A stretch of 64,000 bases of DNA, from the sequence record PQ349265.1; one strand, written 5' to 3'. Both the position numbers and the translations under genes were made by a program. The notes beneath the pieces were generated by a model. That model ran no database searches. It was not told where the DNA came from and saw nothing but the letters and a program-made list of their open reading frames with translations. This DNA comes from Escherichia phage CJY920. Shown here one piece after another: positions 16,798 through 25,143 of this stretch (positions within the stretch are counted from its first letter, which is position 1; each line of letters begins with the position of its first letter).

Positions 16798-18172
<1,375 letters not shown>

Positions 18173-18426
18173 TAATTGAGGCCTGAGTATAAGGTGACTT
18201 ATACTTGTAATCTATCTAAACGGGGAACCTCTCTAGTAGACAATCCCGTGCTAAATGTTCTTTTGAACTAAATGCCTAACGACTATCCCTTTGGGGAGTA
18301 GGGTCAAGTGACTCGAAACGATAGACAACTTGCTTTAACAAGTTGGAGATATAGTCTGATCTGCATGGTGACATGCAGCTGGATATAATTCCGGGGTAAG
18401 ATTAACGACCTTATCTGAACATAATG
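18173..18426 (+). ncRNA. group I self-splicing intron in td, ORF-less (about 254 nt)
   Basis: Starts TAATTGAGGCCTGAG..., contains core GTAGGGTCAAGTGACTCGAAA and GATATAGTCTGATCTGCATGG, ends ...CTGAACATAATG; no ORF inside. Confidence 0.8.
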
Positions 18427-18761: not shown

Positions 18762-19007
18762 ATGATTTTACGATTTAAAGATACTTCTGGTGTCGTTCTT
18801 TTTACACTTCCTAATCCAAGTGAGTTAGAAGTTCCAGGACCAAATCAGCCTATTATCATTTATGGCAAAAAATATTATACTCATAAAATGACTCGTGAGT
18901 ATTTTGATAATAAAATTTCTACGGTTAAAACTTCTTCAGATTGTTATTATGATATTACTGTTTTAACGGAAAAACAATATGACGAATGCAGAACTTTAGC
19001 AGTATAA
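18762..19007 (+). CDS. hypothetical protein (81 aa)
   Basis: ATG ORF; its 3' end overlaps the 3' end of the antisense GIY-YIG gene by 12 bp. Confidence 0.4.
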
Positions 19008-19727
19008 ATATGATTCCCAGCAATCTAGAGCGCATCTTTTAGATATAAGTTTTCTGCTTATTCCGGTTTGACGCACAGCTTCTGCTATTGTTGGATATTC
19101 TACCCCATCTATACTTACTCTTAGATGGGGTTTCTTTTTACCTCTTTGTGAGTCAGAAATTCGTTTTCTAACTTCATTGGTATGTGTCTGTCCATAATAT
19201 GGATTATTGATGCCTTTCATATTAAGTGCAGCGTTTCTTTCTTGGAACTTTTTGCTTATTTCTATAGCACGATCTAACCCATAGTGTTCTTCTATAGTTT
19301 TACCTTTGATATCTCTAGGTCTACCATGTTTTTGCTTAAGTTCTTCTGGTGATAATTTTGAATTATTATTTTTAATTGCATTTGAAATTTTATTAAGGAT
19401 TTCTTGCTTTCTTGGGTGATGAGATAAGGTATCCCCAAATGATGCGTCTGCTATATTATACCCATTTTCCTTTGAGTCATATTCATGCATCCAATAATTT
19501 TCACGTTCAATAATGATAGATTTTTCGTATGGAAGTTCTTCTATGATTTTACATACGAAAGCATCTTTCCCATGCTTATTATAAGAACGCTGCAGCTTTA
19601 TTGAATGATGATTTCCATTATCTAAATCTTTAAAGTGTCGTTTCCATCGTTCTTCAAAATTAATTGCACTTCCTATATAGTGCTTATTAGTTTTAGTGTT
19701 TATAATAGCATATATTCCAGATTTCAT
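18996..19727 (-). CDS. GIY-YIG homing endonuclease, I-TevI-like catalytic domain (243 aa), free-standing and antisense
   Basis: N-terminus [35 protein letters not shown]... closely resembles the I-TevI GIY-YIG domain as recalled; C-terminal HTH-like [21 protein letters not shown]; own TATAAATA and AGGAGA upstream. Confidence 0.8.
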
Positions 19728-19749
19728 TATATTCTCCTATATAAAATTA

Positions 19750-19757
19750 TATTTATA
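19750..19757 (-). promoter_or_regulatory. late promoter TATAAATA for the GIY-YIG endonuclease gene
   Basis: Plus-strand TATTTATA is TATAAATA on the minus strand, about 22 nt upstream of the ATG. Confidence 0.6.
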
Positions 19758-19782
19758 TGGGGTAACTTACGACAGAGGACTT

Positions 19783-22047
19783 ATGCAATTAATTAATGTT
19801 ATCAAAAGTAGTGGTGTTTCTCAGAGCTTTGACCCGCAAAAAATTATTAAAGTTTTATCTTGGGCAGCTGAAGGAACATCTGTAGATCCTTATGAATTAT
19901 ATGAAAATATTAAATCATATCTCCGTGATGGAATGACAACTGATGACATTCAAACCATTGTAATTAAGGCTGCTGCGAATTCTATTTCAGTTGAAGAGCC
20001 TGATTATCAATACGTAGCTGCACGCTGTTTAATGTTTGCTCTTCGTAAACACGTGTACGGACAGTATGAGCCCCGTTCATTTATTGACCATATTTCTTAC
20101 TGTGTAAATGAAGGTAAATACGACCCTGAACTGTTGTCAAAATATTCAGCAGAAGAAATTACATTTTTAGAATCAAAAATTAAGCACGAACGGGATATGG
20201 AATTTACTTATTCCGGGGCGATGCAATTAAAAGAAAAATATCTCGTTAAAGATAAAACCACTGGTCAAATTTATGAAACTCCACAGTTTGCATTTATGAC
20301 TATTGGAATGGCATTGCATCAAGATGAACCTGTTGACAGATTAAAACATGTTATTCGTTTTTATGAAGCAGTATCTACTCGACAGATTTCATTGCCAACT
20401 CCTATTATGGCTGGTTGTCGTACTCCGACTCGGCAATTTAGTTCATGCGTTGTTATTGAGGCAGGTGATTCGCTGAAGTCTATCAACAAAGCTTCTGCTT
20501 CAATTGTTGAGTATATTTCTAAACGAGCCGGAATCGGCATTAACGTTGGTATGATTCGTGCCGAAGGTTCTAAGATTGGCACAGGTGAAGTACGCCATAC
20601 TGGTGTTATTCCTTTTTGGAAACATTTTCAGACTGCTGTTAAATCATGCTCACAGGGTGGAATTCGTGGCGGCGCTGCTACTGCTTATTATCCTATTTGG
20701 CATTTGGAAGTTGAAAATCTTCTCGTTTTGAAAAATAACAAAGGCGTAGAAGAAAACCGTATCCGTCATATGGATTATGGTGTCCAGCTGAATGATTTGA
20801 TGATGGAACGTTTTGGAAAGAACGATTACATTACTTTGTTTAGTCCACATGAAATGGGTGGCGAACTTTATTATTCTTATTTTAAAGACCAAGACCGTTT
20901 CCGTGAATTATACGAAGCTGCAGAAAAAGACCCTAATATTCGTAAAAAGCGCATTAAAGCCCGTGAACTGTTTGAATTGCTCATGACTGAACGCTCAGGA
21001 ACAGCAAGGATTTATGTACAGTTCATTGATAATACGAATAACTATACTCCATTTATTCGTGAAAAGGCACCTATTCGTCAGAGTAACTTGTGCTGTGAAA
21101 TTGCTATTCCAACAAATGATGTGAATGGACCTGACGCTGAAGTGGGCCTCTGCACTCTTTCTGCCTTTGTTCTTGATAACTTCGATTGGCAAGACCAAGA
21201 TAAAATTAATGAATTAGCAGAAGTCCAAGTTCGCGCTCTTGATAATCTTTTGGATTACCAAGGATATCCAGTTCCTGAAGCAGAAAAAGCTAAAAAGCGT
21301 CGAAATCTTGGTGTAGGTGTTACTAACTATGCAGCTTGGCTGGCAAGTAACTTTGCTTCTTATGAAGATGCTAACGATTTAACACATGAACTATTTGAGA
21401 GATTACAGTATGGGCTCATTAAAGCATCCATTAAGCTCGCCAAAGAAAAAGGACCTTGCGAATATTATTCAGACACTCGTTGGTCTCGAGACGAATTACC
21501 TATCGACTGGTACAATAAAAAGATTGACCAAATCGCAGCTCCAAAATACGTTTGTGACTGGTCGTCGCTGCGGGAAGACCTTAAGCTCTTTGGCATCCGT
21601 AATAGCACATTATCAGCACTTATGCCATGTGAGTCATCTTCCCAAGTTTCTAACAGTACAAACGGTATCGAGCCTCCACGTGGACCAGTCTCGGTTAAAG
21701 AATCAAAAGAGGGTTCCTTTAATCAAGTCGTGCCCAATATTGAACATAACATAGACCTCTATGATTATACATGGAAATTAGCTAAGAAAGGTAATAAACC
21801 TTATCTTACGCAGGTAGCTATTATGCTTAAATGGGTATGTCAATCAGCTTCAGCGAATACATATTATGACCCGCAGATTTTTCCAAAAGGAAAGGTTCCA
21901 ATGTCTGTAATGATTGATGACATGCTATACGGATGGTATTATGGCATTAAAAACTTCTATTATCATAATACTCGTGATGGTTCCGGTACTGATGATTACG
22001 AAATAGAAACTCCAAAAGCTGAAGATTGTTCATCCTGTAAATTATGA
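19783..22047 (+). CDS. nrdA: ribonucleotide reductase large subunit (754 aa)
   Basis: From ATG 19783 (SD GAGGA): MQLINVIKSSGVSQSFDPQKI...; class Ia RNR alpha motifs; the ORF-track N-terminal extension from 19696 is rejected. Confidence 0.9.
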   Translation: MQLINVIKSSGVSQSFDPQKIIKVLSWAAEGTSVDPYELYENIKSYLRDGMTTDDIQTIVIKAAANSISVEEPDYQYVAARCLMFALRKHVYGQYEPRSFIDHISYCVNEGKYDPELLSKYSAEEITFLESKIKHERDMEFTYSGAMQLKEKYLVKDKTTGQIYETPQFAFMTIGMALHQDEPVDRLKHVIRFYEAVSTRQISLPTPIMAGCRTPTRQFSSCVVIEAGDSLKSINKASASIVEYISKRAGIGINVGMIRAEGSKIGTGEVRHTGVIPFWKHFQTAVKSCSQGGIRGGAATAYYPIWHLEVENLLVLKNNKGVEENRIRHMDYGVQLNDLMMERFGKNDYITLFSPHEMGGELYYSYFKDQDRFRELYEAAEKDPNIRKKRIKARELFELLMTERSGTARIYVQFIDNTNNYTPFIREKAPIRQSNLCCEIAIPTNDVNGPDAEVGLCTLSAFVLDNFDWQDQDKINELAEVQVRALDNLLDYQGYPVPEAEKAKKRRNLGVGVTNYAAWLASNFASYEDANDLTHELFERLQYGLIKASIKLAKEKGPCEYYSDTRWSRDELPIDWYNKKIDQIAAPKYVCDWSSLREDLKLFGIRNSTLSALMPCESSSQVSNSTNGIEPPRGPVSVKESKEGSFNQVVPNIEHNIDLYDYTWKLAKKGNKPYLTQVAIMLKWVCQSASANTYYDPQIFPKGKVPMSVMIDDMLYGWYYGIKNFYYHNTRDGSGTDDYEIETPKAEDCSSCKL

Positions 22048-22063
22048 TATAATTACCACAAGG

Positions 22064-23656
22064 ATGTGGTTAACTAAGAATAACGCTATGTTTGATAATA
22101 TATACAAAAACGGAAAGTTTCTTCCATTTGGAGAAGAAAAACTTAAATCTAGACTAACAGAAGAAGATAAAGCTCTTCTAACTGATGGAATAGATTTTAA
22201 GCTCAATGTGTTCCAAATTATGGAAGGCATTGACATTAACGATCTAAAATGTGCAGTTTGTGGAAATTTCATTTCTCTGAAAACAGCAAAGAAACGTGTA
22301 TTTCCAGCAACATGTAGTAAATCCTGCTCAGGGATATTTTTCGCGGATAAGAGAATTCAAAGCCGTGATACAAATTTTGGCGGAAAAGAAAAATATAAAA
22401 AATATTTGTCTGAACTTCAACACAAAAATTCTTTAGAAAAATATGGAACAACTCATCAAAAAATTTCAAGAAATAAAAATAGAAAAACTTTAATTGAACG
22501 ATATGGGGTAACGCATAATTCACAATTAGAAAGTGTGAAAGAAGCGAGAAAAGTTATAGAAAACGGTAAATCAGTTGATATTCTGAATTCTAAAAAATCT
22601 CGCGAAAAATCTAAGAAGACTAAATTAAATTGGACTGAAGAATATAAGGCATCGTTATATTCATCTATAGGAAAATCTATTAAAAATAACGGTCATATTA
22701 ATCATGATATACTAGATAAAATCAATTACAAAATTTCTATAGAAGAACTACAACAATTAGCAAATTGTTCTCGGATGACGGCTTATAGAGCTCTTTCATC
22801 CAAAGGACTAATTGACGTTCATTATACTCAAAGTTCTATAGAGCAATTCATTTTAGATCTAGGATTTGATTGCGTAGAAACTAGAAAAATTATTCCTCCG
22901 TATGAATTAGATATTTACATTCCTGAGAAAAAATTGGCTATAGAATACGATGGAATTTATTGGCATTCTAGCGGGTCAAAGGAAACAGATAAAATTAAAG
23001 AAACTTATCATTTGATGAAGACAGAGATGTGTGAAGCACAAGGAATTCAATTACTTCACATCTTCGAAAATGAATGGATTGATGATACAAAAAGAGAGAT
23101 CTGGAAATCCATTATAAAGCATAAATTAGGATTATCAGAAAGAATACCAGCCCGAAAATGCAAAGCACGGTTTGTTAATAAGGATGAGGCAAAAGAATTT
23201 ATTAATAAGAATCATCTTCAAGGATTTTGCTCAGGAGCTCATACGTATAAAGGACTTTATTACAATAATGAGTTAGTTCAAATTATTTCTATCGGTAAAT
23301 CTAGATATAGCTCAGGTGATGAACTTTTAAGGATGTGTTCAAAATTAGGGGTTTGTGTTGTAGGAGGAGCCTCAAAATTATTAAAAGGAATTAATTGTCT
23401 ATCTTATGGCAATCGAAGATGGTGCAGTACATTATCAAATGTTTATGACTCTGTCATGGAATTTAGTCATATCTCTGAGCCATGTTATTGGTACGTCGAT
23501 AAAGGAGAGGTATTTCACCGCTCAAGCTATATGAAACATAAGCTTAAAAACAAGCTTAAAAATTATGATGATACAATAACTGAAGTAGAAAATTGTTATG
23601 CAAATGGTCTTAGAAGAATCTGGGACTGTGGAAATTTAGTTTACAGGACAAAATAA
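22064..23656 (+). CDS. putative free-standing homing endonuclease (530 aa): zinc-finger-like N-terminus, tandem YG-TH repeats, Vsr/DUF559-like nuclease core
   Basis: Cys cluster CAVCGNF...CSKSCSG; repeats EKYGTTHQKIS / ERYGVTHNSQ; core PYELDIYIPEKKLAIEYDGIYWHS...GIQLLHIFENEW resembles DUF559/Vsr-type PD-(D/E)xK nucleases; sits at the nrdA-nrdB position where T4 has mobE. Confidence 0.55.
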   Translation: MWLTKNNAMFDNIYKNGKFLPFGEEKLKSRLTEEDKALLTDGIDFKLNVFQIMEGIDINDLKCAVCGNFISLKTAKKRVFPATCSKSCSGIFFADKRIQSRDTNFGGKEKYKKYLSELQHKNSLEKYGTTHQKISRNKNRKTLIERYGVTHNSQLESVKEARKVIENGKSVDILNSKKSREKSKKTKLNWTEEYKASLYSSIGKSIKNNGHINHDILDKINYKISIEELQQLANCSRMTAYRALSSKGLIDVHYTQSSIEQFILDLGFDCVETRKIIPPYELDIYIPEKKLAIEYDGIYWHSSGSKETDKIKETYHLMKTEMCEAQGIQLLHIFENEWIDDTKREIWKSIIKHKLGLSERIPARKCKARFVNKDEAKEFINKNHLQGFCSGAHTYKGLYYNNELVQIISIGKSRYSSGDELLRMCSKLGVCVVGGASKLLKGINCLSYGNRRWCSTLSNVYDSVMEFSHISEPCYWYVDKGEVFHRSSYMKHKLKNKLKNYDDTITEVENCYANGLRRIWDCGNLVYRTK

Positions 23657-24331
23657 TGAGTACAGTTTTTAATACTAAACAGGTCGATGTTTTAAAAGAA
23701 CCTATGTTTTTTGGTTCAGGTCTTGGTATTGCGCGTTATGATATTCAACGGCATCGAGTATTTGAAGAACTTATTGAACGTTCGCTCTCGTTTTTCTGGC
23801 GTCCGGAAGAAGTAAACTTGATGATGGATGCTGCACAGTTTAATAAGCTTCCTCAGTATCAACAAAATATTTTTACTAATAATCTGAAGTATCAATCATT
23901 ACTTGATAGTATTCAAGGTCGTGCGCCGTCTGCTGTACTTATGCCATTGCTTTCAGACCCAAGCCTTGATACATGGGTTGCTACATGGACTTTTAGTGAA
24001 ACTATTCACAGTCGTTCATATACTCATATCATGCGAAATCTTTATACTGATCCATCGAAGGTATTTGATGAGATTGTACTAGATGAAGCTATCATGAAAC
24101 GTGCTGAATCTATCGGTCGCTATTATGATGATGTTCTGACTAAAACCCGTGAATGGGAAAATGCTAAAGAATTTACAGAACTAGCTAAAGAATCTCCTGA
24201 TGCTGTTTTTCGTTTAAATCGAGCTATTAAACAAGAAGCCGAAGCTAAACGTGCTTTAATGAAATCTCTTTACCTCTGTTTGCATGTTATCAACGCATTG
24301 GAAGCTATTCGTTTTTATGTATCTTTCGCGT
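23656..24331 (+). CDS. nrdB: ribonucleotide reductase small subunit, exon 1
   Basis: ...NALEAIRFYVSFA then T of a split Cys codon; R2 signature as in E. coli NrdB. Confidence 0.85.
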
Positions 24332-24640
24332 AAAATGCGCCTTTAAGCAGTAATGCTTATCGAAAACTCCTTTAATTGCTGGAAAATCCAGAAATGGAAA
24401 ACTAGCAGCCAAGGTTTTGCTTGCACCTTTAATTAGTATCATATTATAAATATGATTATACTTTTAAGAGGATGCACAATTGCAAAGCAAGGTTCAACGA
24501 CTAGTCTTCGGACGTAGGGTCAAGCGACTCGAAATGGGGAGAATCCCTCTGGGATTGTGATATAGTCTGGTCTGCATAGTAATATGTAGCAGTTCATAAG
24601 AGAACGGGTTGAGAATTAGCGAGCTCAATCGAACATAACG
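24332..24640 (+). ncRNA. group I self-splicing intron in nrdB, ORF-less (about 309 nt; boundaries within a few nt)
   Basis: Core GTAGGGTCAAGCGACTCGAAA and GATATAGTCTGGTCTGCAT paralogous to the td intron core; ends ...GAACATAACG; no ORF inside. Confidence 0.7.
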
Positions 24641-25143
24641 GTACCTTTAACTTCCATAAGAACATGGAAATCATGGAAGGTAATGCCAAGATTATGAAGT
24701 TCATTGCTCGTGATGAACAGCTTCACCTTAAGGGTACCCAATATATTATTCGTCAACTTCAATCCGGTACTGATGGTGATGAATGGGTTAAAATTGCTCA
24801 AGAGTGTGAACAAGAAGCAGTTGATATTTTCATGGAAGTTAACCGTCAAGAAAAAGACTGGGCAGTTCATTTATTTAAAGATGGTGATGTTCCTGGATTA
24901 AATACAAATAGCATGTGGAGCTTTATTGATTACTTAACTGTATCTCGTATGAAACAGTGTGGTCTTCCATGCCCAATTACCGATGCTCCGGTTAAACATC
25001 CATATCCTTGGATTCGTGAATACCTTAATTCTGATAATGTTCAATCCGCGCCACAAGAAGTAGAACTATCATCTTACCTTGTAGCACAGATTGATAATGA
25101 TGTTGATGATAAAGTTATGATGAGTTTTAAAAAATATTTTTAA
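24641..25143 (+). CDS. nrdB: ribonucleotide reductase small subunit, exon 2
   Basis: Splice restores [36 protein letters not shown]..., homologous to E. coli [24 protein letters not shown]... Confidence 0.85.

Follow-up and report, generated by a model that had tools for sequence, protein, structure and literature searches.

The 530-aa open reading frame between nrdA and nrdB of Escherichia phage CJY920 is very probably the homing endonuclease gene hef, which is free-standing in T4-like phages and here occupies the slot that in T4 is taken by mobE. We analyzed it within a stretch of 64,000 nucleotides (sequence record PQ349265.1; the window) and observed identity with the Hef protein of phage U5, the folds of its domains, conserved catalytic residues, the boundaries of the insertion and a pattern of sequence identity that speaks for recent horizontal spread. 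The encoded protein is built from three parts: a variable, presumably DNA-binding N-terminal region comprising a Cys4 element, three YG repeats and a helix-turn-helix-like segment, a Vsr-like metal-dependent nuclease, and a Mom-like GNAT domain. The coordinates of all features are collected in Table 1.

Table 1 Position of hef, its predicted domains and its flanks in the window.
Feature	Position	Strand	Details and basis
nrdA, upstream flank	19783..22047	+	ORF listing, related-phage annotation
Segment inserted relative to hef-less phage PD112	22055..23655	+	~1601 nt in place of the 43-nt nrdA-nrdB spacer; junction alignments, PD112 annotation
hef ORF	22064..23656	+	530 aa plus stop; ATG start, TAA at 23654-23656; ORF listing, ortholog of phage U5 Hef
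Alternative hef start codon, ATG (M9)	22088..22090	+	Distant-homolog alignment, model disorder
Cys4 putative zinc-binding element, aa 62-92	22247..22339	+	C63, C66, C84, C88; zinc binding inferred
Three ~21-aa helical repeats, aa 93-160, DUF7487 type	22340..22543	+	Column counts, DUF7487 match, helical model; presumed DNA-binding
Helix-turn-helix-like segment, aa 222-251	22727..22816	+	Weak HTH_11 match, E 0.047-0.13; putative assignment
Vsr-like (EDxHD-type) nuclease domain, aa 252-355	22817..23128	+	Profile, fold, conserved residues
Mom-like GNAT domain, aa 356-530	23129..23653	+	Foldseek, hhalign, Pfam matches of relatives
nrdB, downstream flank	23656..25143	+	Split by a group I intron that lacks an ORF; Rfam match 24313-24589
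nrdB codons 7-10	23674..23685	+	Window, U5 and N2 (hef-carrying): ACTAAACAGGTC, T-K-Q-V; T4 and hef-less PD112: ACAAATCCAGTT, T-N-P-V

A tblastn search of annotated phage records aligned the product over its full length with U5 Hef (GenBank AY262133, ABI48935), with 528 of 530 residues identical (99.6%). The two substitutions, N175H and S417T, do not affect any conserved catalytic position. The AY262133 record describes hef as a homing endonuclease gene located between nrdA and nrdB, and the first-pass annotation, which had proposed Hef or a relative for this ORF, was thereby borne out. The product also matched PHROG 3339 ('homing endonuclease') with an E-value of 3e-151, whereas PADLOC yielded a weak 'HEase' match only (E 5e-5) and an NCBIfam search of the product returned nothing useful. 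At 99% identity or more, hef was found in 16 of ~960 related phage records. Besides U5, these are 15 records of T4-like phages of Escherichia, Shigella and Salmonella, in which the label varies between 'hypothetical protein' and 'Hef-like homing endonuclease'. The carriers in the database amount to roughly 14 genomes, to which the phage of the window adds one more T4-like phage.

U5 Hef was described by Sandegren, Nord and Sjoberg in Nucleic Acids Res in 2005. In that study, hef was reportedly present in one of 18 screened phages, and the Hef protein reportedly cut near its own gene but also cut the DNA of the hef-carrying phage; homing of hef is said to be called 'most likely' only. A review by Edgell and colleagues from 2010 describes U5 hef as encoding a unique endonuclease that cuts nrdB, the gene also targeted by T4 MobE (PMC2988022). 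The endonuclease activity and the cleavage of nrdB ascribed to Hef are taken from this literature.

The ORF listing recovered the 530-aa frame on the strand and at the coordinates given by the first-pass annotation, between the end of nrdA at 22047 and the nrdB ATG at 23656, which overlaps the hef stop codon TAA. The hef region has a GC content of 27–32% compared to 37–42% for the flanking genes. An unbroken 1.6-kb frame in such AT-rich DNA, together with the more than 2500 homologs of its product obtained in a homolog search, indicates that hef is not a chance ORF. No second Hef-like copy was found within the window.

The position of the hef start codon differs from the annotation of the U5 gene. 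There, an ATG located 42 nt (14 codons) further upstream, within nrdA, is given as the start; this codon reads AAG in the window (22022..22090 region), so that translation must start at either ATG 22064 or ATG 22088 (M9). Distant homologs begin aligning with the product at residue 9, and residues 1–7 are disordered in the model with pLDDT values below 50; ATG 22088 may be the true start. At ATG 22064, an AAGG motif abuts the start codon directly. A scan around hef for promoter and terminator signals of its own gave 13 sites, against 11.4 ± 3.6 expected by chance, and no terminators. This null result is compatible with a reliance of hef on upstream transcription, a dependence that has been shown for mobE.

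Alignment with the hef-less phage PD112 delineated clean boundaries of the inserted segment, as the PD112 homology ends 7 nt past the nrdA stop codon (22054) and restarts exactly at the nrdB ATG. The sequence shared with PD112 includes a perfect TATAAT hexamer at 22048..22053, directly 3' of the nrdA stop codon and without a convincing −35 partner. Compared with the DNA of phage N2, hef in the window is 99.8% identical (3 mismatches in 1593 nt), whereas nrdA reaches 95.9% and rnlA 96.8%. Likewise, in the comparison with U5 DNA, hef shows an identity of 99.6%, the last 262 nt of nrdA 90.8% and the first 645 nt of nrdB 86.4%. The gene therefore sits in a mobile genetic context: closely related phages differ in whether they carry it, and its sequence is conserved much more strongly than that of its flanks. 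The GC content below that of the flanks and the small share of carriers (16 of ~960 related records) speak for mobility as well, and the identity pattern is as expected for an element that recently moved between phages. Five substitutions within the 12 nt of nrdB codons 7–10 are common to the three hef-carrying phages examined. The T-K-Q-V variant that they encode may represent either a co-converted flank or a variant of the target site.

The surrounding region displayed several further features. The mechanically called nrdA ORF opens at a GTG at 19696 and its additional part (19696..19782) overlaps a reverse-strand GIY-YIG ORF, while conservation places the NrdA start at ATG 19783 (MQLINV...). 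This free-standing, I-TevI-like GIY-YIG ORF of 243 aa (18996..19727, − strand) is oriented opposite to td and nrdA and exhibits full-length identity of 46% to T4 I-TevI (E 2e-71). No ORF is present in the td group I intron of the window (18163..18378), and N2 is arranged alike. For the nrdB intron, the gap between the exons is ~320 nt; its T4 counterpart carries the defunct I-TevIII.

Free-standing endonuclease genes frequently degenerate, and the neighbouring td and nrdB introns of the window have indeed lost their endonuclease ORFs, raising the question whether hef, too, is in decay or domesticated and its product has lost the ability to cut DNA. We consider this highly improbable, as the frame is intact, the differences from U5 Hef are limited to the two substitutions outside the conserved catalytic positions, and the near-identity among phages with diverged flanks points to recent spread.

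In the N-terminal region, the Cys cluster noticed in the first reading of the sequence is present as C63-x2-C66-x17-C84-x3-C88, each Cys being kept in 84–86 of 90 homologs, and relatives match zinc-ribbon or treble-clef Pfam families. It is followed by the tandem repeats that had also been pointed out there, with EKYGTTH at aa 125–131 (Y127-G128) and ERYGVTH at aa 145–151 (Y147-G148). Furthermore, we identified a third, degenerate copy (F105-G106) one period of ~21 aa upstream. Within the family the repeats follow the consensus K-x-T-x3-(K/R)-Y-G-V and differ in copy number between members; the DUF7487 model matches the hef product with an E-value of 0.007 and is found in 47 of the 90 relatives. 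The helix-turn-helix-like segment closing this region contains two helices in the model, spanning residues 226–233 and 237–246.

The central part of the protein adopts a Vsr-like alpha/beta nuclease fold in the AlphaFold2 (AF2) model, where the domain reaches a pLDDT of 94.7. The blocks quoted in the first-pass annotation, PYELDIYIPEKKLAIEYDGIYWHS at aa 279–302 and LLHIFENEW at aa 330–338, lie within a segment in which D283, H301, H316, K319, T320 and H332 are invariant throughout the family. Pfam matches of the product itself remained below the gathering thresholds (MTES_1575, E 1.4e-5; DUF559, E 0.0016; Vsr, E 0.13), and among the 90 homologs MTES_1575 was matched in 56, Vsr in 5 and DUF559 in 3. 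A profile of the Hef family compared against the PDB gave I-Bth0305I (3R3P) as the only significant match, with an E-value of 1.7e-5. Together, the sub-threshold MTES_1575 and DUF559 matches and the match to 3R3P support the Vsr/DUF559-like core proposed in the first-pass annotation.

Based on the alignment with I-Bth0305I, D283 and H301 correspond to D196 and H213 of this enzyme (D51 and H69 in Vsr), and all 90 homologs have both residues. At the first position of the EDxHD motif, E170 of I-Bth0305I pairs with Q256 in the hef product, the family consensus at this position being E; according to Taylor et al. 2011, this first Glu sits in a weakly conserved region (PMC3239194). For the last Asp of the motif, D222 in I-Bth0305I, the nearest candidate is D309 (D in 61 of 90 homologs, gaps in 21), although HMMER pairs D222 two residues off. 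As Taylor et al. 2011 had already counted the Hef-type homing endonucleases of bacteriophages among the Vsr-like EDxHD enzymes (PMC3239194), the fold is confirmed here but is not new.

An HNH endonuclease like MobE is a further reading of this ORF, since T4 has its HNH gene mobE at the same place, as the first-pass annotation had correctly stated, and PHROG 559, labelled 'HNH endonuclease', matches the product with an E-value of 3e-77. However, no HNH family of Pfam was matched by the hef product or by any of the 90 homologs, and the nuclease domain has the Vsr-like alpha/beta fold. We reject the HNH identity, to which we assign next to no probability, as it is refuted by both the fold and the profile results; the PHROG 559 label is thus an annotation artefact. 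No GIY-YIG family of Pfam was matched by the product either, in line with the initial remark that signatures of both families are absent.

The C-terminal third of Hef forms a separate, Mom-like GNAT domain, on which the first-pass annotation did not remark. Its GNAT fold is nearest to that of Mom: a Foldseek search of the Hef model against the PDB ranked the crystal structure of Mom from phage Mu (8BV8) first (E 2.6e-6), the next GNAT protein following at 3e-3. At the sequence level, alignment of the Hef C-terminal family to a Mom family alignment by hhalign gave a probability of 90% and an E-value of 1.5e-6, covering Hef residues 366–493 and Mom residues 40–191. Significance was reached only with the Mom family profile, a single Mu Mom sequence as target in hmmsearch and hhalign being too weak. 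The Pfam 'Mom protein family' (PF25680) was matched at E ≤0.01 by 21 of 90 relatives, at least three homologs among the matches listed exceeding its 27.1-bit cut-off, and no other acetyltransferase family was matched. The hef product itself gave no match to PF25680, even at E-values up to 10.

Mu Mom transfers glycine from Gly-tRNA onto the N6 of adenine in double-stranded DNA, with R111, S124 and R151 being essential and H58, Y59, D149 and Y159 important for function (Silva et al. 2026; PMC13219725). Most of these positions are retained in Hef, where H58 corresponds to H384 (88/90 homologs), R111 to R423 (89/90), R151 to R452 (90/90) and Y159 to Y461 (89/90). In contrast, D149, whose exchange to Ala greatly reduces Mom activity (PMC13219725), is matched by N450 (N in 75/90, D in 15/90 homologs) and Y59 by L385 (87/90). 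The start of a Mom-specific helical insertion, residues 175–209 (Silva et al. 2026; PMC13219725), also aligns in Hef. Furthermore, Hef exhibits an invariant S437 right after G434-G435-A436, resembling the classical pyrophosphate-binding motif of GNAT enzymes; three alignments gave S437 different partners in Mom, so that its correspondence to Mom S124 varies with the alignment.

The conservation profile across the family sets the two C-terminal domains apart from the N-terminal region. Homologs share with the hef product a median identity of 57% across the nuclease and 52% across the Mom-like domain, whereas the N-terminal segments range from 15 to 32%, and certain relatives of ~300 aa correspond to little more than the C-terminal half of the protein. 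The family is thus composed of a constant two-domain core and a variable N-terminal region. This pattern fits an arrangement in which the N-terminus would set the target specificity and the Mom-like domain would do something common to all members. Using the Mom-like domain alone as query, 13,104 clusters were obtained (50% identity, E ≤0.001), and nearly all of the best matches are proteins of 450–700 aa carrying the domain at the C-terminal end.

As a further reading, Hef could be bifunctional in the manner of a restriction-modification system, with an active adenine-N6 acyltransferase marking its own site and the nuclease cutting unmarked co-infecting DNA, a scheme that would be compatible with homing. 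The C-terminal domain is specifically Mom-like and conserved to a similar extent as the nuclease, the residues H384, R423, R452 and Y461, important in Mom, are nearly invariant, and the canonical GNAT G-G-A is followed by the invariant S437. We nevertheless regard this reading as unlikely. The Mom D149 position is Asn in the hef product and in 75 of 90 homologs, Y59 is replaced by Leu, the equivalent of the essential Mom S124 is not fixed by the alignments, and the hef product misses the Pfam Mom model. Moreover, we know of no momylation reported in T-even DNA. Hef reportedly cleaves the DNA of its own phage in vitro, a substrate that would then have been unmodified. On the other side, the same logic was predicted for jumbo-phage fusions of a restriction-endonuclease-fold nuclease (REase) and Mom (Iyer et al. 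2021; PMC7824862). Taken to the family level, Hef-type enzymes would constitute a single-polypeptide 'homing restriction-modification', in which a working adenine-N6 acyltransferase marks the site of the carrier and the Vsr-like nuclease cuts unmarked alleles, which we likewise hold to be a rather doubtful proposition. The canonical GNAT G-G-A-S motif would in this case point to acyl-CoA as the donor, whereas by analogy to Mu Mom it could be an aminoacyl-tRNA.

Reading hef as a homing endonuclease gene, we propose that, when two phages infect the same cell, the nuclease would be guided by the N-terminal region to a target within nrdB, or close by, on the genome of a phage lacking hef. Repair of the resulting break by recombination would then copy hef together with adjacent markers from the hef-carrying genome. 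The Mom-like domain would most likely be an accessory part that is kept constant across the family and assists in binding DNA, flipping bases or forming dimers. The division of labour between the domains that underlies this scheme is inferred.

The flagged ORF re-identifies a gene that is already known, having been described in 2005 and assigned to its nuclease family in 2011. The residual value of the analysis resides in the architecture, as a Mom-like GNAT domain is joined to the nuclease family-wide with most Mom active-site positions intact. Its presence in a homing endonuclease validated by experiment has been little discussed and is of modest weight; in the literature searched we found no paper naming 'Hef-like' together with 'Mom'. 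Should the domain be active, homing endonucleases would thereby be connected with the hypermodification of DNA, and if homing restriction-modification holds true, a family numbering thousands would newly supply DNA hypermodification that is site-specific.

Among known systems, U5 Hef is matched in 528 of 530 residues and at the same nrdA-nrdB locus, with the differences that its upstream annotated start is not a start codon in the window, that the flanks have diverged to 86–91% identity, and that the U5 nrdB intron is ~1.1 kb whereas that of the window is devoid of an ORF. I-Bth0305I (3R3P), the EDxHD prototype, is an intron-encoded enzyme of 266 aa with NUMOD motifs and without a Mom-like domain (PMC3239194). 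The Vsr and DUF559 endonuclease-like proteins (PDB 1CW0, 3HRL) are single-domain proteins of repair or unknown function, and Hef stays below their Pfam thresholds. Mu Mom (8BV8) is a stand-alone, tRNA-Gly-dependent adenine-N6 modifying GNAT protein of 231–241 aa, whereas the Hef domain, whose activity is hypothetical, is part of a fusion; Hef contains the glycine-rich GNAT motif A, which is absent from Mom, and carries Asn and Leu in place of Mom D149 and Y59. The jumbo-phage proteins in which Iyer, Anantharaman, Krishnan, Burroughs and Aravind 2021 found Mom domains fused to restriction-endonuclease-fold nucleases, and for which they predicted a restriction-modification logic (PMC7824862), show the same domain pairing as Hef; the text on these fusions makes no link to the experimentally studied Hef (PMC7824862). 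T4 MobE, a protein of 141 aa belonging to the HNH family, is unrelated to Hef in sequence and fold, but is likewise encoded by a free-standing endonuclease gene at the nrdA-nrdB position and targets nrdB.
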